Shown here: positions 28,635-45,342 of the stretch, in pieces | Layout of the letters: each line of letters opens with the position of its first letter | Position numbering within the stretch: position 1 is the stretch's first letter | NCBI GenBank assembly: GCA_016209715.1 | Contig: JACQVP010000014.1 | Coordinates: 1 to 58,993 of the forward strand | Length of the DNA: 58,993 nt | Origin: Candidatus Omnitrophota bacterium | GTDB lineage: Bacteria; Omnitrophota; Omnitrophia; Omnitrophales; Omnitrophaceae | Direction: 5' to 3' | Translations under genes and position numbers: made by a program | The notes under the pieces: generated by a model | Told to the model about the DNA's origin: nothing | The model's input: only the letters and a program-made list of their open reading frames with translations | Database searches by the model: none

Positions 28635-30531
28635 TTTCGCCGTGCCCTTCCGGGGACTTTCCCGTGAACATGCTCCAATTCATGGGGTAATTTTCGGGGT
28701 CGAACATCGCAAAATAAAAATGCCAGATCACGATGGCCAGCGTCGCCAGCACGGCTTCGTAAAAATGGACGATGGTCGCGACGTCGAGCGCCCATTTGGG
28801 GAAATACCGCATCGCGAAATTCTCATAGACCAGCATCAGCCCGGTGACGGCCATGACCACGGAGCCCCAGACCAGCGCCCAGTATTCGAGCTTTTCCACG
28901 TAGTTGTATCGCGCCAAGACGGGTTTCTCCGGCGTCAGGCCGAGATTGTGCTTCTGCATGCGCCAGAAATCGGAGAAATCCTTCGCCGCGGGGAGCAGCG
29001 CCCGGAACTGGCCGCGCCCGCGTTTGGTGAAAGCGAGGTAGCCCAGGTGGAAGGCGCCCACGGCCATGAACAACTTGGCCGCCAGGCGGTGCACGATCCC
29101 GCGCCAATCGGCCTGCGTCCCGAAGAAGGTGAAAGGCGCGGCCCACCAGGCGTCCGGATATTTGAGGGCGAAACCGGAATAGGCGAGCAGGATGAAAGAA
29201 ACGGCCAGGAGCAGGTGCTGGATCCGCTCGCTCAGCGTGAACCGGGTGTGCCGCCCTTTTTGCTTGGCCCGGGCGTAATGCTCGCGGAGTTTGCGCGCGA
29301 AATCAAGGGCGTTGTGCACGATCATCCCCCCGATCACCAGCAGAATGAGCCAGACATAAAAGACCCCCACGAAGTAGACCACCTGATCGCGGAGACTGGA
29401 AGGCGCGATGTGGATCGAGCCCTTGGCCAATTGATCGCTCACGTTCGGGTGGCAGCGCCCGCAGGTTTGGGGAAGGTTTTTCTTGTTGACCGAAGAGGCC
29501 GGGTCGCTCGAAGGCAGGATGTCGTGGGCGCCGTGACAGCTGGCGCAATTCGCCACCGTGGTGCGCCCGAACTTGCTCGCCAGCCCGTGATAACTTTCCA
29601 GATAAGTTTTCACCCGGTCGGCGGGCAGGCGGTATTTGGTGACGACCTTCTCGGCGGCATGGCAGTGGCCGCAGGTCTTTTCGGACACCGCGGTGGTGTA
29701 GACCGTCGAGGCCGGGTCTTTGTGCGAAAGGATGTTGTGCTCGCCGTGGCAATCGGTGCAGACGGGCACTTCCATCTTGCCCGCCAGGGCGGCGCGGCCG
29801 TGGATGCTCCGCTCGTAAGTCCGCAGCACGTTCTCGTGGCACTTGCCGCAGGTGCCGGGCACGTGCTTTTTGAAAATTTTCGATTCGGGATTGGTCGGCG
29901 CGTGCAGGTCGTGCGAACCGTGGCAATCGTTGCAGACGGCCGCGGAAAGGTTCTTCTTCTCCAAGAGCGCCTTGCCGTGCACCGTGTCGGCGTACGAATG
30001 AAGGGGTTGTTTCTCCAGCAGGGAATACCTCGCCATCATCTTCTCGTTCTCGTGGCAGACGGCGCAGGTCTGCGGGATGTTCAACCGGTGGATCGGGGAA
30101 AGGGGATCCCGCGCGCTGCGAATGGTGTGTGTGTCGCCGTGGCAATTGAGACAGCTCGCCGCGGGGACCCCGCTCTTGAGCGCCTTGCCGTGGTCGGAGG
30201 CGCCGTAAATCTCGGCCTCGACGCGGTGGCAGACCGCGCAATCGACCTGTTTCAGGCTTTCCGGGTGGGGCAATTCTTTGATGTCGCTGTGGCAGGAAGT
30301 GCACAAATTGCTCCCGTGCGCGGTGGTCTCGAAATCCTCGAGCTTGAACGTGTCGTGGCAGGCGAGGCAGTCTTCGTTGGCGATGGTTTCAGCCGCTGCC
30401 GGCTCGTCCAGCGGCGCGGGGGCAGGTTCCTCGGCGCAAGCCAGCGCCGCCCAGAGGCAGATCGCGAGCGCGATCAGGATCAGGACGAGATCCAGCTTTA
30501 CGCGATTTCCCCCGAATGGCAATCGAAACAA
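28624..30531 (-). CDS. CbcL-like fusion: periplasmic 11-haem cytochrome c plus a 5-TM b-type cytochrome (FdnI/HydC-like) domain
   Basis: Signal peptide, 11 CXXCH motifs, then His-bearing TM helices (IQHLLLAVSF, IVHRLAAKLF, VATIVHFYEAV). TTG start at 30531 or 30522. Confidence 0.8.
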   Translation of the reverse strand: MFRLPFGGNRVKLDLVLILIALAICLWAALACAEEPAPAPLDEPAAAETIANEDCLACHDTFKLEDFETTAHGSNLCTSCHSDIKELPHPESLKQVDCAVCHRVEAEIYGASDHGKALKSGVPAASCLNCHGDTHTIRSARDPLSPIHRLNIPQTCAVCHENEKMMARYSLLEKQPLHSYADTVHGKALLEKKNLSAAVCNDCHGSHDLHAPTNPESKIFKKHVPGTCGKCHENVLRTYERSIHGRAALAGKMEVPVCTDCHGEHNILSHKDPASTVYTTAVSEKTCGHCHAAEKVVTKYRLPADRVKTYLESYHGLASKFGRTTVANCASCHGAHDILPSSDPASSVNKKNLPQTCGRCHPNVSDQLAKGSIHIAPSSLRDQVVYFVGVFYVWLILLVIGGMIVHNALDFARKLREHYARAKQKGRHTRFTLSERIQHLLLAVSFILLAYSGFALKYPDAWWAAPFTFFGTQADWRGIVHRLAAKLFMAVGAFHLGYLAFTKRGRGQFRALLPAAKDFSDFWRMQKHNLGLTPEKPVLARYNYVEKLEYWALVWGSVVMAVTGLMLVYENFAMRYFPKWALDVATIVHFYEAVLATLAIVIWHFYFAMFDPENYPMNWSMFTGKSPEGHGENGN

Positions 30532-32009
30532 TTCATCTCCTTCCAGGCTTCGCCCACGTCTTCATCGGGATGCTTGAACTCGAGCCCACCCGTGTTGCTT
30601 TCGATCGCCCCCGGCTTTCCCTGCTCCATGATGATGTGGCAGGAGTTGCAATCGTTGGTGAGGATCTCGCCTCCCGCGGTTTTATGTTTGTTGTCGTGGC
30701 ACCGGAAACATCCCGGCGCGTCTTTGTGCCCGATGTTCTCCGGATAGGCCTTCCAGGAAACCTTCATCTCGGGGAAAAAGTTGCTTTTGTAAATCTTGAC
30801 CACGGTGTTAACGCTCCTGGCTAAACTGTCCTTTTTCTCCTTCAGCACCGCGGGGTACTCCGATTCATAAAAGGCCTTCAACGATTCCCGGATCCCGGCC
30901 GCGGCTTCCTTCTCGCTGGCGTATTCGCCGACCAGGGCCTTCACCGCCTCCCGCTTTATATAAGGAAGCTCGCGGTCAATCTCCCCCACCGAAAGGGCTT
31001 CGTTGACCGCGTCCACCGGCGTCCGGAAATTGTGGCTGGGCCGGTTGTGGCAGTCCATGCAATCCATGCGCCGTATCTCGCCCGGGGGCGGCGAAGCCGC
31101 GGAAAACCCCGATTCTTCGTCCACGTAGACACGCTCCTTCCCTTCCGGGTCGATGATTTTGACCCAGGGGATCACGTGGCGCTCTTCGTCGGTGGCGATG
31201 TAATAAACTTTATTTTTGATGTTCATGTGCCAATGGATGCCCTCTTTTTTGCCGAACTTGCGGGTCCCCCCGCCCACGAACAGGAGCATCCGCGTGCGCC
31301 ATTCAGTGTTGGCCTCATCGGGCAGGAAATACTGCTTGTCCTGTTCCACGGCGCCGAAAAACTGCTGCGGCCAATGGCACCGCTCGCAAGTCTCCTGTGC
31401 CGGACGCAGGTGTTTGATGGGCGTTTCAATAGGCTTGGAATATTTTTTCATGACCACCGAATACACCTGGTAGGCCCCTGAAAATTTGGAGCGGACATAC
31501 CACGCCGCGCCCGGCCCGATGTGACATTCCACGCATTTGACCCGCGCGTGCGGCGAATTGTGATAGGCGGTAAATTCCGGCTTCATCACCTCGTGGCAAA
31601 CGCGGCCGCAGAACGTTTGCGACTCCGTGAATTCGTAAGAACGAAACAGGCCAAACACGGTGAAAAGCCCGAACAGGGTGGTCACCCCGATCGTGGTGAA
31701 GGCCCATTTTTGATGGGTCGGATTGTTGAAGTCGATCGCGGGAAAGCGCCGGACGGTGCCGTGTTTGAGCCGCGCGGCCCGCTCCCGAAGGGCCCCCACG
31801 GGGATCAGGATCAAACTCAAGGTCAAGAAGGCCGGCGCCAGAAAATAAGTGATAATCCCGATGTAAGGATTGATCTCCTTCGACCAGATGTCCAGGAAGG
31901 ACAGGAACAGGATCACCGTGAAGAAGATGACGGACAGTATCCCCCCGATGACGCTGATCCAATTCTGGAAATAGGAGTCCTTTTTATTCGGGTTATTCGG
32001 GTCCATCAT
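30498..32009 (-). CDS. ImcH-like inner-membrane multihaem cytochrome (NapC/NirT-related)
   Basis: Three N-terminal TM helices; CGRVCH (CX3CH) plus six CXXCH motifs (CVECH, CERCH, CMDCH, CFRCH, CNSCH, CFDCH). ATG at 32009 behind AGAGGGA; the track start at 32012 is a TTG. Confidence 0.7.
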   Translation of the reverse strand: MMDPNNPNKKDSYFQNWISVIGGILSVIFFTVILFLSFLDIWSKEINPYIGIITYFLAPAFLTLSLILIPVGALRERAARLKHGTVRRFPAIDFNNPTHQKWAFTTIGVTTLFGLFTVFGLFRSYEFTESQTFCGRVCHEVMKPEFTAYHNSPHARVKCVECHIGPGAAWYVRSKFSGAYQVYSVVMKKYSKPIETPIKHLRPAQETCERCHWPQQFFGAVEQDKQYFLPDEANTEWRTRMLLFVGGGTRKFGKKEGIHWHMNIKNKVYYIATDEERHVIPWVKIIDPEGKERVYVDEESGFSAASPPPGEIRRMDCMDCHNRPSHNFRTPVDAVNEALSVGEIDRELPYIKREAVKALVGEYASEKEAAAGIRESLKAFYESEYPAVLKEKKDSLARSVNTVVKIYKSNFFPEMKVSWKAYPENIGHKDAPGCFRCHDNKHKTAGGEILTNDCNSCHIIMEQGKPGAIESNTGGLEFKHPDEDVGEAWKEMNCFDCHSGEIA

Positions 32010-32031
32010 CAAAGTCCCTCTTAGCTGTGCA

Positions 32032-32074
32032 AGAGTACCGTATATATACTCAGCCGAAAGTGATCGGCATCACA
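32032..32074 (-). promoter_or_regulatory. CRP-type operator TGTGATGCCGATCACT (32059-32074), then 21 nt, then the -10-like TACTCT (32032-32037); putative imcH-cbcL operon promoter
   Basis: Read directly, with the same 21-nt geometry as the other three sites. A TATATATA run at 32041-32048 is an alternative -10. Confidence 0.5.
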
Positions 32075-32082
32075 AAGGGTCC

Positions 32083-32130
32083 AAAAAAAAAGGCTGCCCG
32101 TCACCTCCTCTGAACCCATGACGGACAGCC
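32083..32130 (-). terminator. Rho-independent terminator after the tetrahaem cytochrome gene
   Basis: Minus strand GGCTGTCCGTCA-15 nt loop-TGACGGGCAGCC (12-bp stem, one G-U pair) followed by a run of 9 T. Confidence 0.75.
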
Positions 32131-32156
32131 CGGCGGCTCAATCAGCCACCTAATAC

Positions 32157-32687
32157 TTATTTATTTGGAACCGGGTGCTTAATCTTCTCCCACCGTTCCG
32201 CAAAATTGAACGGCCTGAAATTCGGGTTTTCTTCGTTATGGCATTTCACGCAAGTCGCTTCGGTGGGAATCTCCATTCCCGCCTTCATCGCCGCGTCCCG
32301 ATTTTCCATAATGCTCTTCTTGGCATAGTCTTTCCCCGCACCGTGGCAAGACTCGCAGGAAACGCCTTCCTCGACCGGCACTTTTTGTGTAACTTTTTGC
32401 TCTGTAAGACCATACGCTGTCGCATGGCATTTCAAGCATTTGCCGCTCGTCGTGGGATCTTCAATTCCCAGCTTGGCTGCGGTTTCCTTGGCAGCCGGTG
32501 TCGTAAGTGTTTGGTAGGCTTTGGAATGTGCGGATTCCTGCCAAATCCTCAGCTGTTCGCCCTGTTCCGGTTTCTTGTGGCACATTGAACACATCTTCAC
32601 CCCTGTGTATTCATGAGCGGCCAGTGCCGCGTCCAAGGGGGCCAGCAGATTCACTGCCAAAAACATCATGATCCATTTCTTCATCAC
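32157..32687 (-). CDS. Periplasmic tetrahaem c-type cytochrome
   Basis: Signal peptide ending LDAALA-AH and four CXXCH motifs (CSMCH, CLKCH, CESCH, CVKCH). The track start is a GTG at 32687; the first ATG is at 32684. Confidence 0.85.
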   Translation of the reverse strand: MMKKWIMMFLAVNLLAPLDAALAAHEYTGVKMCSMCHKKPEQGEQLRIWQESAHSKAYQTLTTPAAKETAAKLGIEDPTTSGKCLKCHATAYGLTEQKVTQKVPVEEGVSCESCHGAGKDYAKKSIMENRDAAMKAGMEIPTEATCVKCHNEENPNFRPFNFAERWEKIKHPVPNK

Positions 32688-33069
32688 CCATCACCCCTTT
32701 CCTCTGGCATCTTAAATTTCTACTAATACAATCTTGATGCCAAGATCAAACCGTTATTACGAATTATTGCTCTCTCCTAAGTCATATTTCAGAAATGAGT
32801 TATACTATCGGCCCGCGCCGGCAGATTTGACCCCGCCAGCGCCTTGCGTCATTTCACTCAATGGCCTTTAAAGGGCTGCGTCAGAATCCCTAAGGATCGT
32901 TATTGTTTCTGTAATAATGGCTAATTTTGCTGCTTTCTGATTAATCTTAAAGGCAACTGGCTCGACAGGAATCATGATGCGATCTCTGTGCGGAGTTGGG
33001 TCTTCCGATCTTTGACCGCGCTGATGTCAAAAATTTCAAAACATCTCTTCCGTTGCGGATTTTTCTGAA

Positions 33070-33075
33070 TATAAT
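33070..33075 (+). promoter_or_regulatory. Perfect TATAAT hexamer about 95 nt upstream of the giant ORF (no convincing -35)
   Basis: Read directly in the AT-rich intergenic region. A TG lies 2 nt upstream (not canonical extended -10 spacing). Confidence 0.3.
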
Positions 33076-33170
33076 ATTCCCCTACCAGCCCAAAAGTCGC
33101 CGGGGTATCAGCAGCAATCAATGAATCAAATTGCCATCAAACAAGAGAAACGTGTCATCTCAAATTTTGG

Positions 33171-36100
33171 ATGGAAAAAAAACCTATGCGATTGAATTTC
33201 CACTTTCATAAGTCGCATAGTGTTAGACGGGTCCTCCTCCTCTCTTTCTTCTTTCTTCTTCCTTTCTCTTCCCTGAATTCATACGCCGCCGATTCCTTTC
33301 ACGTTCTCGACGCGGCCGACCGCGGCGCCGAGGCCTCCGAACCGGGCCGGGCCTCCACGCTGGCCGGTTACGACGAGACCCGCAAACAGGACGTGATCGA
33401 ACTAAACTATTCCCTTCCCGCGAATGGAACGGCGAGTTTTTGGGCCAAGAATTTTCCGGCCGGCCTGGAGCCGGAGTCCGTCGGGACGGTCGAGATCTCC
33501 GTGAAAACGGCCGATGCCGCGGAGCAGGAGCAAATTTCCGTCACCCTGGATCTAAACGGAAGCGCCGGGACACAGAGCTTCCCCATCGAACTGAAGACCG
33601 GCTGGACGAGCAGGACGGAAATCATTGATTGGCCGACCCTCGGCAAATTGGAGGAATTGAGACTCGACCTGAAGGCCGCGGCGCCCGCGGAAGGAACACT
33701 TACTTTTACGATCTCTTTCAAACCGGCGCCGGCCCCGGCACCAGCCGCGCCCGCGGTGGAAGTCACGGCGCCGGCCAGCTCCGCTCCTGAGCCGGCGGCA
33801 GAGCCTGAGACCGAGGACGCCGAGGCCCCGGCGCCCAAGCCGGAAGTGGTCCCGGCCGCGTGGACGCTCTTCGACGCCGGTCAGCGCGGAGTGGACATGA
33901 GCGGGAACGCCGCCGGCGGGATCATGCCGACTTTTGACGAGGCCGCCAACAAGGACGTCCTCGAGTTTGACTACACCCTTTCCGAAGGCGACTCCATCAA
34001 AGTCTGGGCCCGGGAGTTCCCTTCGACTCTTTCGAGCGCCACCGCCAACGCCTCTAAAATCAGCGTCCGGGTGATCGAGCCCGGCCAGGCAGAAACGATC
34101 TCGGCCTCGCTCGAAATCCAAGGCAGCGCGGGGGCTCAATCCGTCCCGCTCATTTTGAAATCGGGCTGGAATTCGTCGTTGAACGCCGTGAACTGGGACG
34201 AGACCGGCGATTTACGCGAAGCGGCTCTAGCTTTGGCGCCGGCGCCGGGACAAAAGTCGGCTAAGGGGACGCTCAACGTGGCCGTGGATTTCGTCCGACT
34301 GGCCGACTTGAACCTGCTCCGCTCCTCCGGCCAAACAGCCGCCTGTTCCCTTTTCGACGCGGGTGAAAAGGGCGTCTTCAACATCGGTTCCTCCAAAGGG
34401 CTCATCACCGGCGCCTTCAATGAGCAATTGGGCAAAGACGTGTGGGCCTTCGAGTATTCTTTGCCCGACGCCTCGGTGGTCGGCATCTGGACCAAGAGTT
34501 ACCCCGCCGACCTCAATGCCGCGGCGGCGGACGCGGTCCGGGTCGGGGTCCAGGTCCCCGACTCCAATCAATTGACGCAGGTTTCGGTCAAACTGGAAAT
34601 CAAAGGAGAGAGCGGCATGCAGACCATCCCTCTTTCCCTGAAACCCGGGTACAACTCCGTCGCCGAGCGCATCAACTGGGGGACCATCGGGGCCTTGACG
34701 GAAGTCGTGTTCGTGGTGAGCCCGATGGCCGTGGGGCCGCTCGTGGTGAGCCCCGTCGGCCTGAGCCCGATGGAAAACAAGGAACCCATCAACGGCACCC
34801 TGTACTTCGATCTTGAATTCGGCCGCCTCAGCTTCATGCAAAAGAATGCCACGCTGATCAAGGTGGCCCTGATCTTGTTGGTCGGTCTTCTGGCCTCGCT
34901 CGGCACGTTTGTCGCGAGCCGGACCTTCCGGCGCGAGACCGCACGCGCCACCGCCCCGGAAGAAAACACCGGTCGCAGCCCGGCCGGCAGGGACTTTTTT
35001 TACGGCGCCATGGCCGTTCTCATCGCCGGAGTCGCGATCTACATCTATTCTCTGAATTCGATCAGCCCCCTCGACGGAGCCTTTCATCTCGGTTTCGCCG
35101 GAGTGGCCCTGACGGGGATCGTCATTTCCGCGCTCCTGAAAAAGCATCTCACGGGCGAATGCCTTTCGGCCGGCGAAGTCTTCCAGAATTTCACGGCGTG
35201 CGGCCTCCTGGCCATCGCCACGAGCAAGCAGGAAATCCTCCAGGCGCCCTCCAGTTGGGTTCAGATCTTTCAATTCAGCGGCATGGTGGCCGCGGTCACG
35301 TTTTCCATCTATCAATTTTCGAACGCGCGTTCCCTGGCTGTTTCCCGGCGCCATCTGGGCCCGGTCAGCTGCGCCCTCATCGTGGGCACCCCCTATTTGT
35401 TCAACTGGCTGCTGCTGGTCGAAAACGCTAATTTCCTGCAAACCCTGATCAACGCCCTCACCGTGCACCTGCTGGCCGCCTGGCCCCCGGTCCTGGAATT
35501 CCTGGGCCGGCTTTTGGTCATCTTTCTCTTCAACGAAGCGGTGACGAACGGCATCAGCCTCTCCACCAAAGGCCGCCTGCTCAAATCCGGACTGGCCCAT
35601 GCCGTTATTTTCGGCGTTTCGGCCGGCGTCGTGGTTTCGCCTTACATCGCCGACCTCGGGTCCCTGCCCGCGGTGGGAGCTCTGGCCGCGCCGCTGCGCG
35701 CCCTCGTCGCCATCCTGACCACCGTGCTTTCGTTCGCCGGACTCTGGGGCGAGGTGTATCTCCTCACGGGAATTTCCCTCGACGGCGGCCACAGCAAGGC
35801 CCCCTCCCAGGAAAGCATCCTGAATCACGTCAATATCGGCGTGCGTAAAGGCATGGCTTACAGCGGCATCCTCACCGCCATCTTGTATGTGCTCTTCATC
35901 GTTTTCGACGCGCGCGCGGCACAGGCGTTCATGGCGCGCTTTCCGCTGCCCATCGGCATCCTCGCCGGGGGGCTCATTTTTCCGTTCGTGAAGACCATCA
36001 TCGAGACCTTCGACGGAAGCCTTCCCTTTTTCGAGCGCACCCGTTTCAGCTACCGCGACCCGGTGCTCTATTTCCGCGGCGCGATCGTCGGCTTCGGTTT

Positions 36101-39100
36101 CGCGCACATGATCGCGCACGGCCTGTTCGCGGCGGGCATGCAAGAGCGGATCGGATTCGGCCTCGTGATCGGGCTGGCCGCCTCGGGCGGAGTCAGCTTC
36201 CTGAGAGACGTATTTTACGGATTCCGCGGCCAGGGCGGGGTTCAGAGCTGGCGGCTTTATCTGGTGGATTCCCTGCTCGGGGCCTTCGTGGGGTGCGCGG
36301 TGGCCTTCTACCTCGATGCCCGCCAGGTCCCGGTCATCCTGGAAAAATTCAAGCTTTACACCTCCGCCGGTTTCGACGCGGTCGATTACATCACTTACCC
36401 GCTCTTGAACAAATGGGGCCGCATCGACCTCGGCACTTACGCGGGCGGCGTGAAACTTTTGTACACCGAATCTCTCGCCGGCGTCATCAATTGGTCCATC
36501 GCGGCCTGGCTCTTCGCCATCAACAAAGTCTTCATGCAGGCCTTTTTCGACAAGGACAAGACCCCCATCAAGTTTTTCTTCTCCAAGGAAGGCTTCGCCA
36601 CCCTCATCGAGCACATGATCTACGTCCTCCGGTGGGGGCTCTGGATGTCCCCGATCATTTTCACTTTCCTCCGGATGATGCCCGAGGCCACCTGGTACAA
36701 CCAGGACGGCGCGATCCGCACCGTGTTCGCGATTTATCAAAACGCCACCCTGTCTCCGGAGGCCTTCCAGCAGTGGAGCCTTCAGGTTTTCGTGTACATC
36801 CTGGCCTTCGACTTCTTCCGCATCCTGATCTGGATGGACCACATGGGCCTGCGCGTGGCCACGCTCGTCAATTTGAGCTTCCTCGGGATGGACAAGCTGG
36901 ACGAAAAGATTTCCCGCTTCATCGGCCCGGCCGCGGCGCAACGTTATATCCCCGAAGGCGTGAAACGCTTCACCACGTGGGCGCCCCTGCTGATCCCGTT
37001 CTATCTCCCCCGCGGCGACGATTGGAACTATGTCTGGAACACCGCCGAGGCCATGCAAAACGCCGGGCGCGGCCGCGGCTTGGTTTCCTTCCTCCAATCT
37101 CTCTCGCTTCCGCAAATGGCGCTCTTGATCGCCTGCGCCGTCGCGGTCGCCACCGCCGTTTCTTATGCCGCGCGCGAACTGAGCCGCCGGGCGAGAAAGC
37201 GGCGCCTGGCCACGTTCGAGCTGGAGAACCGCGAATATCGCGTCGTGGTGAAGGAAAACGGCGAGGCCTACAGCGAGGTGCTCTCCAAGGAATTTTTTGA
37301 CCTCACCCGCCGCGCTTACGACCTGATCGATCCCTGCGGGCGCATTCTCTTCCTTCTGGACACCAAGGAAGCCCCCCGCGCGCCCCGCCGCTTTTGGCCG
37401 GTCGTCGGCAATTTTCCGCGGGACATGTTCGACGCCTCGCAAATCGAGAAGGGCGACGGCACCGTCAAATTCACGAACGAGAATCACGGCGTGCGAACCA
37501 CTGTGGAAATGAGACTCCCGGACCTCGACAGCACCGCGGAGGTCTGGACGGTCACCGTTGAAAACATGACCGCAAAACAGCGCGAGTTGAAAATGGTCCC
37601 TTATCTCGAGTGGGTCCTGAACGGATGGATCCACGACCGGTTTCACACGCAGTACGCGCGGCTGTATCCCGAGATGGAATACAAGGCCGGCGCGAACGCG
37701 ATCCTGACCTGGCAGAAGGCCACCAAATCCATGGGCTTCCTGGCCTCCGATGTCGCCCCGCAGGGGTTCCTCTCTTCCCGCATGGATTTCATCGGCCGGG
37801 CGCAGAGCATCTGGGCGCCCCGGATCTTCGACACGCTCGCGTTTTCGGAAGCGCGCGACACGGCCGGCTACCCGACGTTCGATCCCATCGGCAGCCTCCT
37901 GATCCATTTGACCCTGCAGCCGAAATCTTCGAAGACCGTGCGCTTCATCGTCGGACACGCCAAAAACAAAGACGCGGCGCTGGGCCTGATCCGTAAGTAC
38001 CTCAATCCGGTCCCGGCCGAGACGGCGCCTTCCGGTCCCGCCAAGAAGAAATATCCCCTGATCGGGCACGGCGAAATCTTGCCGGGCACGCCGCAGCCGT
38101 ATTCGGAATTCATCGACGAGGGCCGGAAATTGCTCGTCCGCACGCCTTTCACCACCCGGCCGTACGACCACGCGCTCTCCAACGCCATCCACTCGGTGAT
38201 GGTCACCAATCGCGGCCTGCACACGTCCTGCAACGGCAATTCGCAGCAAAACCGCCTCACGCCGGACTGGCCGGACACGGTGACGAAGGAAATCCCGACG
38301 GAAGCCATTTATCTGCATGACCCGGAGACGCGGGAATGGTTTTCCCCGACCTACCATCCCCTGAACAAACCCAACGCGCAGTTCGAGTCCGAGTTCGGCG
38401 TCGACGGAACCGCCATTTTCCGCATGACCGAGGGCTCCCTGTCGACGCGCCTCACCGTGTTCGTGCCGGTGGACGACCCGGCCGGCGTCTATTATTTGAC
38501 CGTGAAAAACAATTCCGACCGCTCCCGCAGGCTCCGGGTGTCGCCTTATTTCCAAATGGTCCTCTCCTTTCAACCGGAGCGCTCGGGGACACTCAGCGTG
38601 AAACACGACCGCGACACCAACGCCCTCTTCTTCGAAAACCCGCGCAACATGTTCCGCACGGGATGGGCCTTTGCCTCCATGTCGCTCCCGGCCGAGCAGG
38701 TGGAGACCAAGCGGGGCCGCTATTTCGGTTCGGACCGCGGCACCATCCATCCTTTCCTGGTGGAGCAGGGCCGCCCGGACGAGACCCAACTGTGGGACGA
38801 CCGCCAGGTGGCCGCCTTTGTCGGGACCTTGGAAGTCCCCGCGCGCGGGGAGGCTTCGGTCGCTGTGGTCCTGGGGCAGACGGACCGGCGAGACGAGGCG
38901 CAGAAATTGGTCCGCAAGTACAAAGACCTCGAGACCGCCAAGACCGCGCTGGCCCAGACCCAGCAATGGTGGCTCAATCTGATGAACACGGCGCAAGTGG
39001 AGACCAACCGTCCCGAATTCGACCGCCTGCTTCACTGGCTCAAGTACCAGGCCCTCGCCGAGCGCATCTGGGCCCGCCGCGGGTTTTACCAAACGAGCGG

Positions 39101-40481
39101 CGCCTTCGGGTTCCGCGACCAGCTGCAGGACACGGTCAACATGATCTGGGTGGACCCTTCCCTGGCCCGCAAACAAATCATTCTCCATGCCTCCCAGCAA
39201 TTCGTCGAGGGAGACGTCTTTCACTGGTTCTTCACCCTGACGGACGGGCGCACGGCCTTCTCGTGCCGCTCCCATGCCTCGGACAATCCCGTGTGGCTGC
39301 CGTGGGCCGTGGTCGAATACGTGCGCGGCACCGGCGATTATTCGGTCCTGGACGAAATGGCCTCTTACGTCGTTTCCGAATTTCCCTTTGCGCCCCTTCC
39401 CAAAAACAAGCAGGGCTGGGGCCATTTATACCACCGTTCCACCCGCGCCGATTCCATTTACCGGCACTGCATGAAATCCATCGACCTGGTCCTCAACCAT
39501 CGCATGGGCAAGCACGGCCTCCCGCTGATCCAGACCGGCGACTGGAACGACGGCCTGGACGAGATCGGCAGCGAAGGCCACGGCGAAAGCGTCTGGCTCG
39601 GGTTCTTCCTCTACTACATCTTGAAGCACATCCTCCCCGTCATCGAAGTGAAGGAAGGCGGGGCCAGGAAGGAGCATTACACCCGCAGGATGAAAGACCT
39701 CGGCGCCGCGCTCGAACGCACCTGGCGGGGAGACCGTTACCTGCGCGCCATCCACGACGACGGGACGGAAATCGGGGTCAAGGACAGCGGCGTCTGGGAA
39801 ATCGACGCCCTCACCGCGGCGTGGGCAGTGATCTCGGGCCTCAATCTCGAACGCGGCCTCATCGTTTTCAACACCGCTTTGCATGTGCTCGAGAAGGAGA
39901 ACGCGGTCCTGCTCGGCTGGCCGGCGCTCCGGGAGGACACCAAGCCTTATTTGGGCCGCAGCAGCAAATATCCGGAAGGGGTCCGCGAGAACGGCATGTA
40001 CTGCCACGGCGTGCAATGGCTCGTGCGCGCGGCCCGAATCCTGGCCGAAGAATTCGACAAGGACGGGGACCGGGCCAAGGCCGACGAATACCGCGAAACG
40101 GCCTACCGCCTGTGGCTGAAGGTCTCCGCCATTCCGCACACCGAAGGAAAGGAAATTGAAATCTACGGCGGACAGCCCAACAAGCAGTCGGCGGACATCC
40201 TCACCAACTTCGACCAGGGCCGCATGATTTGGCACGGTTACACGGGCGCGGCCGGCTGGATGCTGCGCCAGGCGTTCGAAGGAGTGGTCGGCGCCGCCTT
40301 GTCCAAGAACCACCTCATCCCGCCCAAGGACCTGGACAAAAATCGCGGAAACTTGAAAGTGAACCGCGTGCACCGTGATCTCGACGTCCTGAAATCCGCC
40401 GGGAACGCGTTCAAACGTTCGTCGAAAGTACAAGTCGAGCCGCCGGCATGGGCGGCAGACAGCCATTCTAAAAGGAGGTAA
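33171..40481 (+). CDS. 2436-aa membrane protein: signal peptide, three beta-sandwich-like repeats, about 20 TM helices and a tandem GH94-like (cyclic-glucan-synthase C-terminal-like) phosphorylase region
   Basis: Uninterrupted ORF. Repeats at about aa 42-183, 229-376 and 391-553. Hydrophobic block at aa 560-1335. GH94-type blocks: TRPYDHALSN...NGNSQQNRLTPDW, FGFRDQLQD and QTGDWNDGLDE. An alternative ATG at 33186 has a better GGATGGA spacer. Confidence 0.85.
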   Translation: MEKKPMRLNFHFHKSHSVRRVLLLSFFFLLPFSSLNSYAADSFHVLDAADRGAEASEPGRASTLAGYDETRKQDVIELNYSLPANGTASFWAKNFPAGLEPESVGTVEISVKTADAAEQEQISVTLDLNGSAGTQSFPIELKTGWTSRTEIIDWPTLGKLEELRLDLKAAAPAEGTLTFTISFKPAPAPAPAAPAVEVTAPASSAPEPAAEPETEDAEAPAPKPEVVPAAWTLFDAGQRGVDMSGNAAGGIMPTFDEAANKDVLEFDYTLSEGDSIKVWAREFPSTLSSATANASKISVRVIEPGQAETISASLEIQGSAGAQSVPLILKSGWNSSLNAVNWDETGDLREAALALAPAPGQKSAKGTLNVAVDFVRLADLNLLRSSGQTAACSLFDAGEKGVFNIGSSKGLITGAFNEQLGKDVWAFEYSLPDASVVGIWTKSYPADLNAAAADAVRVGVQVPDSNQLTQVSVKLEIKGESGMQTIPLSLKPGYNSVAERINWGTIGALTEVVFVVSPMAVGPLVVSPVGLSPMENKEPINGTLYFDLEFGRLSFMQKNATLIKVALILLVGLLASLGTFVASRTFRRETARATAPEENTGRSPAGRDFFYGAMAVLIAGVAIYIYSLNSISPLDGAFHLGFAGVALTGIVISALLKKHLTGECLSAGEVFQNFTACGLLAIATSKQEILQAPSSWVQIFQFSGMVAAVTFSIYQFSNARSLAVSRRHLGPVSCALIVGTPYLFNWLLLVENANFLQTLINALTVHLLAAWPPVLEFLGRLLVIFLFNEAVTNGISLSTKGRLLKSGLAHAVIFGVSAGVVVSPYIADLGSLPAVGALAAPLRALVAILTTVLSFAGLWGEVYLLTGISLDGGHSKAPSQESILNHVNIGVRKGMAYSGILTAILYVLFIVFDARAAQAFMARFPLPIGILAGGLIFPFVKTIIETFDGSLPFFERTRFSYRDPVLYFRGAIVGFGFAHMIAHGLFAAGMQERIGFGLVIGLAASGGVSFLRDVFYGFRGQGGVQSWRLYLVDSLLGAFVGCAVAFYLDARQVPVILEKFKLYTSAGFDAVDYITYPLLNKWGRIDLGTYAGGVKLLYTESLAGVINWSIAAWLFAINKVFMQAFFDKDKTPIKFFFSKEGFATLIEHMIYVLRWGLWMSPIIFTFLRMMPEATWYNQDGAIRTVFAIYQNATLSPEAFQQWSLQVFVYILAFDFFRILIWMDHMGLRVATLVNLSFLGMDKLDEKISRFIGPAAAQRYIPEGVKRFTTWAPLLIPFYLPRGDDWNYVWNTAEAMQNAGRGRGLVSFLQSLSLPQMALLIACAVAVATAVSYAARELSRRARKRRLATFELENREYRVVVKENGEAYSEVLSKEFFDLTRRAYDLIDPCGRILFLLDTKEAPRAPRRFWPVVGNFPRDMFDASQIEKGDGTVKFTNENHGVRTTVEMRLPDLDSTAEVWTVTVENMTAKQRELKMVPYLEWVLNGWIHDRFHTQYARLYPEMEYKAGANAILTWQKATKSMGFLASDVAPQGFLSSRMDFIGRAQSIWAPRIFDTLAFSEARDTAGYPTFDPIGSLLIHLTLQPKSSKTVRFIVGHAKNKDAALGLIRKYLNPVPAETAPSGPAKKKYPLIGHGEILPGTPQPYSEFIDEGRKLLVRTPFTTRPYDHALSNAIHSVMVTNRGLHTSCNGNSQQNRLTPDWPDTVTKEIPTEAIYLHDPETREWFSPTYHPLNKPNAQFESEFGVDGTAIFRMTEGSLSTRLTVFVPVDDPAGVYYLTVKNNSDRSRRLRVSPYFQMVLSFQPERSGTLSVKHDRDTNALFFENPRNMFRTGWAFASMSLPAEQVETKRGRYFGSDRGTIHPFLVEQGRPDETQLWDDRQVAAFVGTLEVPARGEASVAVVLGQTDRRDEAQKLVRKYKDLETAKTALAQTQQWWLNLMNTAQVETNRPEFDRLLHWLKYQALAERIWARRGFYQTSGAFGFRDQLQDTVNMIWVDPSLARKQIILHASQQFVEGDVFHWFFTLTDGRTAFSCRSHASDNPVWLPWAVVEYVRGTGDYSVLDEMASYVVSEFPFAPLPKNKQGWGHLYHRSTRADSIYRHCMKSIDLVLNHRMGKHGLPLIQTGDWNDGLDEIGSEGHGESVWLGFFLYYILKHILPVIEVKEGGARKEHYTRRMKDLGAALERTWRGDRYLRAIHDDGTEIGVKDSGVWEIDALTAAWAVISGLNLERGLIVFNTALHVLEKENAVLLGWPALREDTKPYLGRSSKYPEGVRENGMYCHGVQWLVRAARILAEEFDKDGDRAKADEYRETAYRLWLKVSAIPHTEGKEIEIYGGQPNKQSADILTNFDQGRMIWHGYTGAAGWMLRQAFEGVVGAALSKNHLIPPKDLDKNRGNLKVNRVHRDLDVLKSAGNAFKRSSKVQVEPPAWAADSHSKRR

Positions 40482-40489: not shown

Positions 40490-40711
40490 ATGAAGACGTT
40501 GAGGAATACCGGGTCGGCCGCGCTTTTGGCCTTGGGGCTGGCCGTTTTCGCGGGGGGAACCGCCGAAGCCAACCACCACCTGGAATGCTGCAAGTATGAA
40601 GGCAAGAAATCTCTCACCCAGAGAGAGCTTCCGGAAGCCCAGAACGAGATCGTGATGATGCGCGTCCAACAAATGGAACGGGCGCAAAAGGAAGCCGGCG
40701 CCGCGCTTTAA
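40490..40711 (+). CDS. Small secreted protein (73 aa) with an HHLECC motif
   Basis: GGAGG 12 nt upstream of the ATG (inside the end of the giant ORF) and a signal peptide ending GTAEA-NHH. Its stop overlaps the convergent stop of the Ehr small-subunit gene. Confidence 0.45.
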   Translation: MKTLRNTGSAALLALGLAVFAGGTAEANHHLECCKYEGKKSLTQRELPEAQNEIVMMRVQQMERAQKEAGAAL

Positions 40712-41616
40712 TTCCCCGGCGCTCCGGCTTTGCCGAGCGCCACGAAGATCCCGTACAGAATCGCCTCCGGACGGGGCGGACAGCCCGGAATATAAACGTC
40801 GACCGGCACCGCCTGGTCCACCCCTCCCGAGACCGCGTAACTGCCCCGGAAGATCCCCCCGCTCACGGCACAACCCCCGCAAGCCACCACTGATTTAGGA
40901 GAAGGCATCGCCGCGTAAGTCTTCACCAGCGCCAGTTCCATCTGGCGGGTCACCGGCCCCGTCACGAGCAGCAGGTCCGCGTGCCGGGGCGAGGCCACGA
41001 AGTGGATTCCGTATCGTTCGGCATCATAAAGCGGGGTTGACAGATTGGTGATTTCCACTTCGCAGCCGTTGCAGGAGCCCGCGTCGACCTCGCGGACATG
41101 CAGCGACCGGCCGAAGAGCGCGCCGATCTTGTCTTTGAGCTTCCTCCCCAGGTCCTCGAGCGGGAGTCTGTCGGCAAAGTCTCCCTGCTCGTAATTCGGA
41201 TGGCGCGCACGCGCCGCCGCCGGCGGAAAATTCTTTTCCGGAGCTACGAACCGGGGGTCCTTAACGGTCTCGGACAGCCGGAACTCGAATGGCCGCGCGA
41301 GCGCGTCGCGGGAAGGCGCCGCCAGTTCAAATTTCCCCCGGAAGGAAATGGCCTCGTACGGGCAGGCCGGTCCGCAAAGACCGCAAAAGATGCAGTCGCC
41401 GTAATCCAGGACCAGCGTCCGGCGGTTCTCCTTCTGATCGTCCGAGACCGAAAGCGCGTCCGTGGGGCACGCCGCGACGCATTGGCCGCAGCCCGTGCAT
41501 TTGGCGGCGTCGATCTCAGGAGCCCCCGCGAAGCCTAACGGCGCCTCCGTCTGTCCCGGACAATACGAGGGCGCGGGCCTCCCGCTCTGGAAATTTTTTT
41601 TCAGGATCCTCAGCAT
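40708..41616 (-). CDS. Fused 2x[4Fe-4S] ferredoxin (HyfH/NuoI-like) and NuoB/HycG-like small subunit
   Basis: N-terminal CTGCGQCVAACP and CIFCGLCGPACP. C-terminal GSCNGCEVEI, ACGGCAVSGG and IPGCPPRPE (N2/proximal cluster ligands). Confidence 0.85.
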   Translation of the reverse strand: MLRILKKNFQSGRPAPSYCPGQTEAPLGFAGAPEIDAAKCTGCGQCVAACPTDALSVSDDQKENRRTLVLDYGDCIFCGLCGPACPYEAISFRGKFELAAPSRDALARPFEFRLSETVKDPRFVAPEKNFPPAAARARHPNYEQGDFADRLPLEDLGRKLKDKIGALFGRSLHVREVDAGSCNGCEVEITNLSTPLYDAERYGIHFVASPRHADLLLVTGPVTRQMELALVKTYAAMPSPKSVVACGGCAVSGGIFRGSYAVSGGVDQAVPVDVYIPGCPPRPEAILYGIFVALGKAGAPGN

Positions 41617-41634
41617 CGGATTCTATCTCCCCGT

Positions 41635-43212
41635 TCAGCGGTCATTGCCGGAATACGAAAGGTTCAGGCTCTTGTTGATCACCGGAAAGTCCGGCACGAT
41701 GTTCTCGAGAACCGCGTACTCGATAAGCGGCCAATTGGCGAAAGAGGGCGATTGAATCTTCCAGCGGCTGATCTTGCCCTCCCGGTCCGTCGAAAGCCAA
41801 TGGAAGCACTCGCCCCGCGGCGACTCGACCCCTCCCAGGGCATGAGCCATCGGCGCCAAAGGCCGCGGTACGGCCAGGCAGGGCCCCGGCGCGAGACCCG
41901 CGGCGACTTCGTGGATGAGCTTGAAGCTCTCGTAGATTTCCTGGATCCTGACTTTAAGCCGGGACTCGACGTCACCTTCCGCGAACACGGGCACCATGAA
42001 AAAGAGCTGTGAGTAGACGCCGTACGGATGATCGCGCCGGAGGTCGCGATCGACGCCCGAGGCCCGCGCCGCGGGGCCTGTGCCGCCGAGCGCTTCGGCG
42101 ATTTCCCTGCGGATGATCCCCGTTTCCTCCACCCGGTCGAGAAAGGAACTCGAATTCCAGATGATGTGGACGATCTGCTCGAAATCTTTCTTGATGGCTT
42201 CCGTTTCCCGGAGCAGATGATCCAAGGCGCCGGCCGCGAAGTCCTTGTGCACGCCCCCCGGTACGATCATGGACCGCAGGAGCCGCTGTCCCGTGAGCCT
42301 TTCGTTGAGCCGCAGGAGCCGCTCCTTGACCGCCGCCAACTGGGCCGCTCCGAAGCTGAAGGCCACGTCGAGAACGACGCCCGAAATATCGGCGACGTGG
42401 TTGTAAAGCCTTTCCAGTTCGAGCAAGATGACCCGCAGGCGGAGCGCCCGTTCGGGCACCGTCGTCCCGCTGAGAGCTTCCAGCGCCTGCGCGCAAGCCG
42501 CCGCATGCGACACCGAATTGTCGCCGGAGACCCTTTCGGCGAGGCATAGAATTTCCCGCGGGCTTTTTCCCTCGCCCAGTTTTTCGATCCCTTTGTGGGT
42601 GTAAAAAAGGCGGATCTCGAGCTTCAGGATGCTTTCCCCCGCCGATGAAAACCGGAAATGGCCCGGCTCGATCACCCCCGCGTGAACGGGCCCCACGGGG
42701 ATTTCGAAGACGCCGGCGCCTTCCACCCGCTCGAACGGGTAATCGCCCTGGCGGCGCGGGACTTTTACGCCGTTGGGGAAATCCTTGCGGAGCGGATATT
42801 GGCCGGCGGGCCAGTCCTCGTGCAAAACCAGACGCCGGGGATCCGGGTGACCGGACGGTTTGAGCCCGAACAAATCCTGGATCTCGCGCTCCTGCCAATT
42901 GGCCTGGGGATACAACGACACGACGGAGGGAAAGGAAGCCTCCGTTTCCCCCGCCTGCACCGCCAGGGCCAGGAACCGGTCTTCGCGCGGATGGGCGAAC
43001 GCATAACGCAGGCGGAAGCCCCCTCCCGACTTCCGTTCGTCAAATCCGGCCAGGAATAGAAAGCGCATCTCGAGGACGCGGGCCATGAATTCCGCCGCCG
43101 CGGGCAGGACTTCCGGCGCAACCGAGACCGATGTCAGACGGCCGGTCTCGGCGCGTTCGCCGTACACGGACTTGCCAAACTGTTGCTTCAAACGTTCGAT
43201 CTCAGGGGTCAT
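41635..43212 (-). CDS. NuoC-NuoD / HycE-like large subunit lacking all NiFe-binding cysteines (Ehr type)
   Basis: NWQEREIQDLFG (NuoC), then GPVHAGVIEPGHFRF and FYTHKGIEK (HycE/EchE-like). The L1 position reads ERVSGDNSVSH instead of R-x-C-G-x-C-x3-H. The C-terminus reads NLSYSGNDR-stop instead of D-P-C-x2-C-x2-R. The start is trimmed to the ATG at 43212. Confidence 0.85.
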   Translation of the reverse strand: MTPEIERLKQQFGKSVYGERAETGRLTSVSVAPEVLPAAAEFMARVLEMRFLFLAGFDERKSGGGFRLRYAFAHPREDRFLALAVQAGETEASFPSVVSLYPQANWQEREIQDLFGLKPSGHPDPRRLVLHEDWPAGQYPLRKDFPNGVKVPRRQGDYPFERVEGAGVFEIPVGPVHAGVIEPGHFRFSSAGESILKLEIRLFYTHKGIEKLGEGKSPREILCLAERVSGDNSVSHAAACAQALEALSGTTVPERALRLRVILLELERLYNHVADISGVVLDVAFSFGAAQLAAVKERLLRLNERLTGQRLLRSMIVPGGVHKDFAAGALDHLLRETEAIKKDFEQIVHIIWNSSSFLDRVEETGIIRREIAEALGGTGPAARASGVDRDLRRDHPYGVYSQLFFMVPVFAEGDVESRLKVRIQEIYESFKLIHEVAAGLAPGPCLAVPRPLAPMAHALGGVESPRGECFHWLSTDREGKISRWKIQSPSFANWPLIEYAVLENIVPDFPVINKSLNLSYSGNDR

Positions 43213-44678: not shown

Positions 44679-44679
44679 A

Positions 44680-45342
44680 TCATCCTTTTAACATCGTCAA
44701 TTGATCCATGTCGAGGCCCTCGAAAGCTCCGCGGATCTTAAAGACAAAGACCCCCATGATGATGGCCCCCACCAGAACGTCGAAAAAGATCCCGATTTCA
44801 ACGAGGAGGGGCATCCCGAACGTGGTGGTGACGCCGAGCAGGAAAAGGCCGTTTTCGATCAGGAGAAGCCCCAGCACCTGGGTCAGCGCCTTCTTGCGCG
44901 TGGTCATCATGAACATGCCCAGGAACAGCGTGGCCACCGCAATGGAGACAAACTCCTGGGACAGCGGGGGCTTGATCGCGCGCAGGTTCCCGACCCCGTA
45001 AAACGAGATGAACACGAGGAGCGTCGAAAAAATGAGCGAAAGCGGGATGTTGAGGTAAGTCTCCACATCCCGGCGGATGCCGAGCCGGCGGATCATGCGG
45101 TAAAAGATCTGGGGGATCACGATGGTTTTCAGGACCAGGGTCAGAACGGCCGCGATCAGGACATGAGGAACGCGATGATAGAGGGCGGTGCCGGTGGTGA
45201 TGAGCGCGAGCAGGAACGAATGCAGCGCGTAAAAACGGATGCAGGCGAACAGTTGCGGCGAAACGATGAGCGCCAGCGAAGTCACGAGAAGGAGCATGGC
45301 CACGAAATGCAAGGCCGGCAGCATCCAGGCGGCGCCGGTCAT
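44680..45342 (-). CDS. HyfE/NuoK-like small membrane subunit
   Basis: About 220 aa and 6-7 TM helices. The start is trimmed to the ATG at 45342 (ATGA overlap). The position matches hyfE in hyf-type operons. Confidence 0.6.
   Translation of the reverse strand: MTGAAWMLPALHFVAMLLLVTSLALIVSPQLFACIRFYALHSFLLALITTGTALYHRVPHVLIAAVLTLVLKTIVIPQIFYRMIRRLGIRRDVETYLNIPLSLIFSTLLVFISFYGVGNLRAIKPPLSQEFVSIAVATLFLGMFMMTTRKKALTQVLGLLLIENGLFLLGVTTTFGMPLLVEIGIFFDVLVGAIIMGVFVFKIRGAFEGLDMDQLTMLKG

Follow-up and report, generated by a model that had tools for sequence, protein, structure and literature searches.

Tripartite giant protein at the locus

The window analysed here is the whole of a 58,993-nucleotide stretch of contig JACQVP010000014.1 (assembly GCA_016209715.1), from a Candidatus Omnitrophota bacterium, and the gene in question is a giant open reading frame (ORF) at 33171..40481 on the plus strand. 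It starts with ATG and encodes 2436 residues, in which exported repeats resembling carbohydrate-binding modules (CBMs) are followed by a polytopic membrane block and a C-terminal GH94-type phosphorylase; full-length homologues are 57–64% identical. The ORF is uninterrupted, and both flanking genes lie on the minus strand: a small multihaem cytochrome upstream (32157-32687) and an Fe-S/NuoB-like subunit of a membrane-bound hydrogenase downstream (40708-41616). It is preceded by a low-GC intergenic region of 483 bp (32688..33170, plus strand), presumed to contain the promoter and 5' untranslated region, whose GC content of 0.47–0.51 compares with 0.60–0.65 (~0.62) within the gene. An earlier note on this DNA had described a lone plus-strand ORF among minus-strand genes behind an AT-rich gap of ~480 bp, and what it observed there holds in each detail that could be checked.

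The C-terminal GH94 phosphorylase module

Profile and pairwise comparisons support the assignment of the giant's C-terminal ~1090 residues to a phosphorylase module of the type found in Cgs, the Agrobacterium synthase of cyclic beta-1,2-glucan. The first GH94-type supersandwich (residues 1346–1645; 37206..38105, plus strand) is the equivalent of the GP1 subdomain defined in Cgs (PMC10901819); it matches PF06165 with E 2.3e-32 over residues 1351–1595 and weakly matches Cgs residues 1615–1779, which belong to GP1. The second supersandwich (residues 1667–1902; 38169..38876, plus strand) holds the best stretch for PF06165 and aligns to Cgs from residue 2035 onwards. The (alpha/alpha)6 catalytic domain occupies residues 1933–2374 (38967..40292, plus strand) and matches PF17167 (Glyco_hydro_94) with E 1.2e-64. 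Scores are 239.5 bits for PF06165 (GH94_b-supersand; cut-off 23) and 219.1 bits for PF17167 (cut-off 27). The GH94-like character that the earlier note had read into this region is therefore upheld by Pfam matches within residues 1345–2400 (E 2e-32 for 1351–1595 and 1e-64 for 1933–2374), with two supersandwiches and a catalytic domain.

Among PDB sequences, Agrobacterium Cgs (8rf9/8rf0) matches residues 1648–2413 through its GH94 part, with E between 1e-101 and 1e-103 (2.6e-101 and 8.9e-103 for 8rf9). Cellobiose and chitobiose phosphorylases follow at E 1e-25 to 1e-37, and the soluble 1,2-beta-oligoglucan phosphorylase LpSOGP is marginal at E 0.008. The motif FGFRDQLQD is identical in Cgs and the window protein, and together with VRENGMYCHG it aligns to both Cgs and cellobiose phosphorylase; the RENG..H pattern is also retained. 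QTGDWNDGLDE carries Asp2127 (codon 39549..39551, plus strand), which in the alignment to 8rf0 corresponds to Cgs D2528, the catalytic acid (PMC10901819). Among 96 long family members, the FRDxxQD, DWND and ENG..H motifs occur in 89–93 and DW[NST]D in 91, the shortfall coming mainly from truncated sequences or unrelated large ORFs in the set. Because the catalytic motifs are kept, the phosphorylase looks catalytically competent across the family. The greater proximity to the phosphorylase (GP) part of Cgs (1e-103) than to cellobiose phosphorylases (1e-37) supports a beta-1,2-glucan substrate; this closeness, and the SGL-clan neighbours described below, suggest that the linkage cleaved by the giant's GH94 is beta-1,2.

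The membrane block

Residues 552–1345 (34824..37205, plus strand) form the polytopic membrane block, an unclassified domain. Its AlphaFold2 model, built from a 45-sequence alignment, is nearly all helical and confident (pLDDT 91.1, pTM 0.89). The list of modelled helices, read with the loop charges under the positive-inside rule, predicts ~19 membrane-length transmembrane (TM) helices with the N-terminus outside, which fits the exported repeats, and the C-terminus inside. The C-terminal end of the block is followed by RRARKRR and, ~10 residues on, by the first strand of GP1. The largest non-helical element is a conserved periplasmic hairpin of ~29–45 residues, NKWGxxDLG, at residues ~1064–1092. 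These values agree with the 18–21 helices and the lack of a large soluble loop reported earlier; since no soluble domain of more than 250 residues fits in the block, the claim that it leaves no room for a GT84 polymerase is correct.

Profile and fold searches left the block unassigned. Residues 1–1345 match no GT84, GT2 or other Pfam family even at E<=10, an NCBIfam search of the full protein gave no match at all, and the block is likewise unmatched by Pfam at E<=10 in six diverse family members. A glycosyltransferase (GT) domain hidden in the block was considered and rejected, as Pfam and NCBIfam found none in the whole protein, the isolated block or the six relatives at E<=10. A profile of the block against all PDB sequences, Cgs chains included, returned 0 matches at E<=10. 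Foldseek of the block model against the PDB yielded nothing at E<=0.001, with best TM-scores of 0.12–0.14, and nothing among viral structures; membrane pyrophosphatase, a candidate fold relative (E 0.06, TM-score 0.12), was discarded as non-significant noise. By Pfam and PDB comparison the block has no sequence or fold likeness to GT2 enzymes of the BcsA type, GT-C enzymes, MOP flippases, RND/MMPL, ABC or MFS proteins, and hhalign of its halves and quarters detected no internal duplication or inverted repeat (all probabilities <1%). The earlier statement that the protein has no conventional GT domain is thus sustained by Pfam and NCBIfam, by the all-helical model and by a profile that misses the Cgs chains; profile and Foldseek searches of the block found neither GT84 nor GT2.

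Conservation is concentrated in a core at residues ~940–1300 (35988..37070, plus strand), delimited by the invariant columns of the 45-sequence alignment. Its N-terminal part contains ETFDGS, R956, R969, R993, D1013, YLD1049xxQ1052, the NKWGxxDLG hairpin and N1118, and its C-terminal part R1154-WGLW, TWYNQD1179G, WMD1223-H1224-MGLR1228VATLVN1234 and IPE1262. Ten invariant or near-invariant Trp residues fall at 1082–1289, and Trp reaches a frequency of 4.5% over residues 1027–1290. WYNQDG is present in 92 of the 96 long proteins and DHMGLRVATLVN in 89 of them. Across Omnitrophota the block is 55–67% identical, indicating strong constraint.

Signal peptide and CBM-like repeats

The N-terminus reads as a putative Sec-type signal peptide (residues 1–39; 33171..33287, plus strand), with a positive n-region (KSHSVRR), the hydrophobic core VLLLSFFFLLPF and then SSLNSYA|A, cleavage being placed at SYA|AD. 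Homologues have equivalent A-x-A sites, and their signals end just ahead of the same conserved 'SF'. Three CBM-like repeats of ~150 residues follow, at 31–34% mutual identity and with 32 invariant columns. Repeat 1 (residues 40–186; 33288..33728, plus strand; 34% and 31% identical to repeats 2 and 3) is missing from most homologues and is separated from repeat 2 by a Pro/Ala-rich linker recognised by reading the sequence (residues 187–231; 33729..33863, plus strand). Repeat 2 (residues 232–381; 33864..34313, plus strand) was delimited by repeat alignment and by homologues. Repeat 3 (residues 385–552; 34323..34826, plus strand) is membrane-proximal and the most conserved copy. The signal-like start, the three imperfect repeats and the linker after the first had all been noticed earlier, and stand.

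AlphaFold2 predicts repeat 3 as an all-beta sandwich (pLDDT 91.4). Its best Foldseek match in the PDB is CBM11 (1v0a, E 2.3e-6, TM-score 0.55), the CBM11 matches 1v0a and 6r31 together spanning E 2-3e-6 and TM-score 0.55–0.57; CBM30, CBM15, CBM27, CBM22 and CBM28 rank next. No Pfam CBM model, CBM_11 included, matches the repeats at E<=10. The model therefore supports a CBM11-like beta-jelly-roll at the level of the fold, and the phrase 'carbohydrate-binding-like', used of the repeats in the earlier note, gains a structural basis (E 2e-6, TM-score 0.55). Since the last strand of repeat 3 continues straight into TM1, the module is necessarily placed on the block's periplasmic side.

A family built on a block–GH94 core

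A k-mer-indexed search returned five close homologues with the same domain order; JGI names two of them 'cyclic beta-1,2-glucan synthetase', and one is a partial sequence from Omnitrophica. Run exhaustively with the block's profile, HMMER retrieved 508 representatives of clusters at E<=1e-3, 214 of them at E<=1e-30. Among matches of at least 1400 residues the order block, GP1, GH94 is kept in 29 of 29, and no block lacks GH94. One genome per species was scanned, which gave 80 loci, mostly from Candidatus Omnitrophota and otherwise from Planctomycetota, Auribacterota, Sumerlaeota and Elusimicrobia; nearly all hold giant ORFs of 1.8–2.6 thousand residues. Repeat-less forms of ~1800 residues occur in Beijerinckiaceae, Hyphomicrobiales and metagenome-assembled genomes of Deltaproteobacteria, under the names 'glycosyl transferase family 36' or 'GH36-type glycosyl hydrolase domain-containing protein'. 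Two cultured planctomycetes carry plasmid-borne orthologues labelled 'hypothetical protein': WP_148599143.1 in Aquisphaera giovannonii OJF2 and WP_076351704.1 in Paludisphaera borealis PX4.

The repeats are optional across the family, in 0–4 copies and occasionally as a separate adjacent lipoprotein. Sixty of 70 giants have one to three: one copy in 24, two in 22 and three in 14. In locus L062, on the complete chromosome CP070780.1, the single repeat is a separate 246-residue lipoprotein (9279-10019, plus strand), directly followed by a repeat-less giant at 10034-15511. Separate upstream ORFs with 2–4 repeats were also seen in L065, L066 and L072; at these four loci the head domain can be supplied in trans, or the genes are split. 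The varying repeat number identifies the membrane block plus GH94 as the invariant core, with the CBM-like head as an accessory that is yet consistently alongside.

The giant is not the isolated oddity it was first taken for, since at least 500 clusters share the block–GH94 core. The earlier note had held that abundant characterised orthologues with the same domain order would make the protein an ordinary cyclic-glucan synthase; orthologues of that order are abundant, none is characterised, and GT84 is found in none, so that they do not make the giant an ordinary Cgs. The architecture, which the earlier note had not recognised as described, is absent from the open-access literature searched, where no paper on a GH94 fused to a polytopic membrane domain without GT84 was found. 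One broad GH94 survey left out multidomain sequences (PMC9052796). An exact-sequence look-up of the 2436-residue window protein gave no record.

Genomic context of the giants

Context was sampled at 29 loci, among L002–L081, that hold a complete giant and at least 5 kb on either side. Genes for secreted SGL-clan enzymes lie near the giant, on its strand, in 11 of the 29, and all 11 giants have at most 2286 residues. Repeat number and context were observed to be anticorrelated, giants with 0–2 repeats (up to 2286 residues) standing beside SGL-clan and CBM11 proteins that are secreted; additional heads in the fusion may take the place of accessory binding proteins.

The informative loci include an Omnitrophota subclade (among them L010, L022, L025, L032, L033, L054, L062 and L074) with a shared same-strand operon. 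Its first half encodes a sugar-binding solute-binding protein (SBP), a soluble GH94, a secreted CBM11/30 + GH144 enzyme, a TPR/YfiO-like protein and the giant; after the giant come a secreted CBM11-like protein, two ABC permeases, a CBM11 protein and a ROK protein with an N-terminal helix-turn-helix. The soluble GH94 has 790 residues and matches the GP part of Cgs at 2e-159 and cellobiose phosphorylase at 1e-145. The GH144-containing enzyme matches XcSGL (8xul) at 3e-69 and CpSGL at 9e-39; 8XUL is a GH144 beta-1,2-glucanase, 8XUJ belongs to GH192 and 8WY1 to GH189 (PMC12102758). The start of the secreted CBM11-like protein overlaps the giant's stop in L062, and in the PDB this downstream protein matches best to Cgs, in its cyclase region (1.4e-41), and to TiCGS, in its GH189 transglycosylase domain (8wy1, 4.7e-41). 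As GH189 is close to GH193, a family without a solved structure (PMC12102758), the downstream neighbour may be a transglycosylase or a glucanase. In L025 and L054 a histidine kinase and a response regulator lie upstream. These neighbours indicate beta-1,2-glucan as the substrate of the system, and the giant's context, where informative, resembles a beta-1,2-glucan utilisation operon.

In the window itself the genes around the giant give no hint of its function; they encode multihaem cytochromes, a sigma-54 two-component pair, a molybdoenzyme, an Ech/Mbh-type hydrogenase, inositol-phosphate synthase and malic enzyme. Pfam on 20 ORFs around the giant found respiratory and redox genes only, and a hidden Markov model of the SGL-clan neighbours found nothing in any of the window's six frames.

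Secreted proteins of ~700 residues with no Pfam match directly follow the giants of Aquisphaera (L001, 15903-17981) and Paludisphaera (L085, 12828-14942), the gene of the latter overlapping the giant's stop codon; this Isosphaeraceae protein matches GH192 EeSGL1 (8xuj) marginally (E 0.001), and its hhalign probability against the Omnitrophota SGL-like neighbours is 5%. In Paludisphaera a cluster resembling alternative complex III lies divergently upstream, recalling the cytochromes upstream of the giant in the window. In a Beijerinckiaceae genome (L082/L083, 15516-17114) the gene for a 532-residue flavoprotein of the amine-oxidase type shares 8 bp with the end of the repeat-less orthologue; the window, too, has an amine-oxidase-like ORF (16655-17656), well away from the giant.

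Flanking DNA and other genes in the window

A single weak sigma-70-like match at 32704-32732 lies in the gap upstream of the giant, and shuffled sequences give as much; promoter and terminator scans around the gene were no better than shuffles, and an Rfam search of the AT-rich leader (32688..33170) returned no family at E<=1. An ATG-started antisense ORF of 1732 residues (34227-39425, minus strand), codon-for-codon opposite the giant gene, is regarded as a mere shadow ORF: it is kept open by the rarity of TTA, CTA and TCA codons in the sense gene, 6 out of 2437 (GC at third codon positions 0.81).

Upstream, the minus-strand run at 24814-32687 encodes multihaem c-type cytochromes (NapC/NirT-like, c554/c7-like, a 635-residue fusion of a multihaem domain with cytochrome b561, and a 258-residue lipoprotein), a 716-residue secreted protein without a Pfam match, a ResB-like maturation protein and a sigma-54 NtrC-type kinase/regulator pair; it looks like an extracellular or periplasmic electron-transfer module. 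Downstream, 40708-48466 (minus strand) holds a membrane-bound [NiFe] hydrogenase of the Ech/Mbh/Hyf type or a complex-I-like cluster, with an 853-residue subunit fusing 30-kDa and 49-kDa/NiFe large-subunit domains as well as NuoB-like Fe-S, NuoH-like and antiporter-like subunits. The genes at 9268-15891 (minus strand) encode a 1154-residue molybdopterin oxidoreductase with a twin-arginine (TAT) signal, a 4Fe-4S subunit, and a subunit that joins di-haem cytochrome c to an ethylbenzene-dehydrogenase-like (EB_dh) part, together a respiratory enzyme of the type II DMSO-reductase family; MoeA is encoded nearby at 3260-4834. At 49079-51671 (minus strand) myo-inositol-1-phosphate synthase adjoins an ACT-domain malic enzyme. 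Further on, two ORFs were named only from their N-terminal sequences, one as phosphofructokinase-like (55339-56370) and the other as biotin carboxylase-like (57020-58378).

A proposed membrane conduit coupled to phosphorolysis

We favour the reading that the giant couples a membrane conduit to a phosphorylase of beta-1,2-glucan in the cytoplasm and probably serves uptake and phosphorolysis, and assign it a probability of roughly 0.4. The broader proposal, that the block is a polysaccharide conduit hard-wired to a glycoside phosphorylase, whether for uptake or for synthesis and export, has slightly better than even odds. The earlier note had suggested, by elimination, that the block could be a synthase or a translocase. 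What the analysis establishes is the make-up of the protein from its domains, the lack of a GT domain, the kept GH94 motifs, the fusion and direct tethering of block and GH94, the CBM-like head and the beta-1,2-glucan-related neighbours of one subclade; conduit, coupling, linkage and direction are inferred.

In the favoured arrangement, one to three CBM11-like modules would stand on the periplasmic face, the ~19-helix block would span the inner membrane, and the Cgs-type GH94 would be tethered ~10 residues beneath the last helix. The Trp-rich, conserved C-terminal third of the block would form the conduit for a linear beta-glucan, most likely beta-1,2-linked, and the GH94 site would act on the non-reducing end of the chain as it emerges in the cytoplasm. 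The direction would be catabolic: a periplasmic glucan, for example a cyclic beta-1,2-glucan opened by an endo-glucanase, would be captured by the heads, threaded inward and shortened processively to alpha-glucose-1-phosphate (Glc1P). The pull would be supplied by the high cytoplasmic level of inorganic phosphate (Pi) relative to Glc1P, in what would amount to polymer group translocation by phosphorolysis. Long linear chains too large for an SBP, for instance cyclic beta-1,2-glucans after one endo-cut, would be well served by a machine of this kind.

Two features speak for a unit in structure and function and against simple anchoring: in proteins of at least 1400 residues the block is never found without GH94, and GP1 begins ~10 residues after the last TM helix. 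A conduit is further supported by the invariant Asp, His, Arg, Asn and Gln residues and the ten invariant or near-invariant Trp concentrated in residues 940–1300, aromatic-lined paths being typical of glycan channels such as BcsA, and by the CBM-like repeat, which is always fused to the block or encoded beside it. The SBP-dependent importer, soluble GH94, secreted endo-enzymes and ROK regulator of the subclade suggest a regulated utilisation locus, which favours uptake. Cytoplasmic Pi lies far above Glc1P, so that phosphorolysis is spontaneous without further energy input and could itself pull the chain inward. Export had been emphasised in the earlier note; the context, where informative, favours uptake and phosphorolysis instead.

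Several observations weigh on the other side. Foldseek finds no transporter or channel relative of the block, so that the term conduit is argued from composition and logic only. The ABC importer and soluble GH94 of the operon would make a second uptake route partly redundant, and the upstream TPR/YfiO-like protein and flanking periplasmic glucanases also resemble the synthase-dependent exopolysaccharide operons bcs, alg and pel. At 18 of the 29 fully flanked loci no glycan genes are nearby; all 18 encode long giants with 2–3 repeats, and the window locus is likewise free of glycan genes. The housekeeping synteny of these loci fits a constitutive envelope function at least as well.

Alternative functions

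The strongest competitor, which we consider possible at slightly more than one chance in four, runs GH94 in reverse, in a nucleotide-sugar-independent synthesis and export of beta-1,2-glucan driven by Glc1P. Glucose would be added at the non-reducing end and the chain pushed reducing-end first into the periplasm, where the heads would guide it, in the way that cellulose is guided by BcsB, and where GH189/GH144-like enzymes, themselves secreted, would trim or cyclise it; the system would make a periplasmic or envelope glucan as a split counterpart of Cgs, OpgH or BcsAB that has no GT84. GH94 reactions are reversible and are used preparatively for beta-1,2-glucan (PMC12102758), which counts in favour of this direction. 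Two of the three catalytic modules of Cgs are present in the system, GP in cis and, in one subclade, a Cgs-cyclase-like protein translationally coupled downstream; a secreted TPR/YfiO-like protein stands directly upstream and periplasmic glucanases flank the giant, as in bcs, alg and pel. At most loci, the window included, catabolic neighbours are missing and the synteny is of a housekeeping type; conservation of the block across a phylum is very strong, and the block's invariant membrane-embedded Asp, His and Arg residues could couple to the proton-motive force. However, physiological Pi/Glc1P ratios disfavour GH94 synthesis, and such a machine would need an extra driving force and a primer, neither of which was identified. 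No natural polysaccharide synthase is known to use a glycoside phosphorylase, and the informative contexts hold an SBP-dependent importer, a soluble GH94 and a repressor-type ROK regulator, typical of catabolism.

An unlikely possibility is that no glycan crosses the membrane, the block having some unrelated role as transporter, sensor or anchor, with Pi, Glc1P, ions or a small oligosaccharide as examples of what it might handle, and merely positioning the cytoplasmic phosphorylase at the membrane beside the ABC importer. The only fold matches of the block, faint as they are, are ion and solute transporters (membrane pyrophosphatase, E 0.06), and the utilisation-type operons already hold an oligosaccharide ABC importer. 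Those matches are not significant, however (TM-score 0.12), and simple anchoring would hardly account for a fusion that is obligate and a tether that is direct, or for the periplasmic CBM-like domain welded to TM1 and the conserved Trp-rich core.

Slightly less probable still is a block that is itself a new polymerase or transglycosylase, using for example a lipid-linked glucose donor at the periplasmic face or a periplasmic glucan substrate. GH94 would then only trim or measure chain length or serve as a scaffold, as in Cgs, which can do without GP activity and in which GP serves mainly to control length and as a scaffold (PMC10901819). The invariant acidic and His residues D1049, D1179, D1223-H1224 and E1262, together with Arg in or near the membrane, resemble an active site; the block, however, has no sequence or fold likeness to GT-C, GT2, MBOAT or other membrane enzymes, and the GH94 catalytic motifs kept family-wide suggest that GH94 chemistry is central. 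A cytoplasmic phosphorylase, moreover, cannot reach a polymer made at the periplasmic face unless the chain crosses the membrane.

That the giant is an ordinary synthase of cyclic beta-1,2-glucan, as its nearest GH94 relative and the database names 'cyclic beta-1,2-glucan synthetase' and 'glycosyl transferase family 36' would have it, is refuted by the absence of GT84, of a cyclase in cis and of the Rossmann-like (RFL) insert, by ~19 rather than 6 TM helices and by a profile of residues 552–1345 that misses the Cgs chains of the PDB even at E<=10, the names stemming from the GH94 domain alone, and we regard it as highly improbable.

Significance

Glycoside phosphorylases are regarded as soluble cytoplasmic enzymes, and in the current view the glucan synthases of bacteria depend on nucleotide sugars (GT2/GT84) or on donors linked to lipid. 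A GH94 permanently fused to a large unclassified membrane domain, with CBM-like heads outside, fits neither picture: its chemistry is known, while the membrane domain, the architecture and any coupling would be new. If the block conducts polymer, it would represent a new form of polysaccharide transport, either an energy-neutral import that captures glycosidic bond energy as Glc1P or an export driven by Glc1P; in the latter direction it would be the first natural polysaccharide synthase-exporter to use a sugar-1-phosphate and not a nucleotide sugar. The family would then be a class of transport-coupled carbohydrate enzymes without characterised precedent, conserved across Omnitrophota and also present in Planctomycetota and Proteobacteria, and would help to fill a gap in what is still a thin picture of beta-1,2-glucan biology. 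Omnitrophota is a phylum of ultra-small, possibly host-dependent bacteria, and the near-ubiquity of the giant there hints at a role in the envelope or in the consumption of glucans from the periplasm of other bacteria. The names 'cyclic beta-1,2-glucan synthetase' and 'GT36' are wrong for hundreds of database entries, and the membrane block merits a domain family of its own. The plasmid-borne orthologues of the two cultured planctomycetes make the question directly testable.

Comparison with known systems

The closest known relative is Cgs of Agrobacterium, with which the giant shares GP1 and the GH94 module (E 1e-101 to 1e-103, identical FGFRDQLQD, catalytic-acid position kept) as well as residence in the inner membrane with the phosphorylase in the cytoplasm; in some relatives a Cgs-cyclase-like protein adjoins the giant. 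Of four features that define an ordinary Cgs, the GH94 module is present and the other three (GT84, cyclase in cis, six TM helices) fail. The GT84 polymerase, which in Cgs is a GT2-like cytoplasmic domain between TM helices, is missing; no GH189/GH144-like cyclase is found in cis, PF10091 and DUF3131 being absent and the Cgs alignment limited to GP1 and GH94; and GP1 and GP2 are not separated by an RFL insert. The ~19 TM helices adopt an unrelated, unclassified fold, compared with 6 helices in Cgs, and ~510 residues, the CBM-like repeats among them, are exported, whereas all soluble domains of Cgs are cytoplasmic.

Soluble GH94 phosphorylases have the supersandwich and (alpha/alpha)6 domains in common with the giant, and SOGP also has an extra N-terminal sandwich (GP1) and no RFL insert. 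The expected chemistry is alike, namely reversible phosphorolysis at the non-reducing end giving Glc1P. Unlike the giant, these enzymes have ~800–1100 residues and none is fused to a membrane domain; the giant's similarity is marginal to LpSOGP (E 0.008) and moderate to cellobiose phosphorylases (1e-34 to 1e-37). On the periplasmic side, the repeats share a jelly-roll fold with CBM11 of Clostridium thermocellum Lic26A-Cel5E (1v0a), although sequence identity is ~7%, Pfam CBM_11 does not match and Foldseek also matches other CBM families.

At the level of concept, BcsA-BcsB and OpgH/OpgG resemble the giant in having a cytoplasmic catalytic domain docked beneath a polytopic membrane domain, periplasmic carbohydrate-binding modules at the channel (a putative one in the giant), and periplasmic glucanase and TPR partners in the operon; they use GT2 and UDP-glucose, however, and no sequence or fold likeness between them and the giant was detected. 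The sugar phosphotransferase system shares only the logic of the favoured model, in which transport is coupled to substrate chemistry at the cytoplasmic face. Its proteins are unrelated and its donor is phosphoenolpyruvate, whereas the giant would take a polymer and Pi, so that the relation between the two is one of analogy, not homology.

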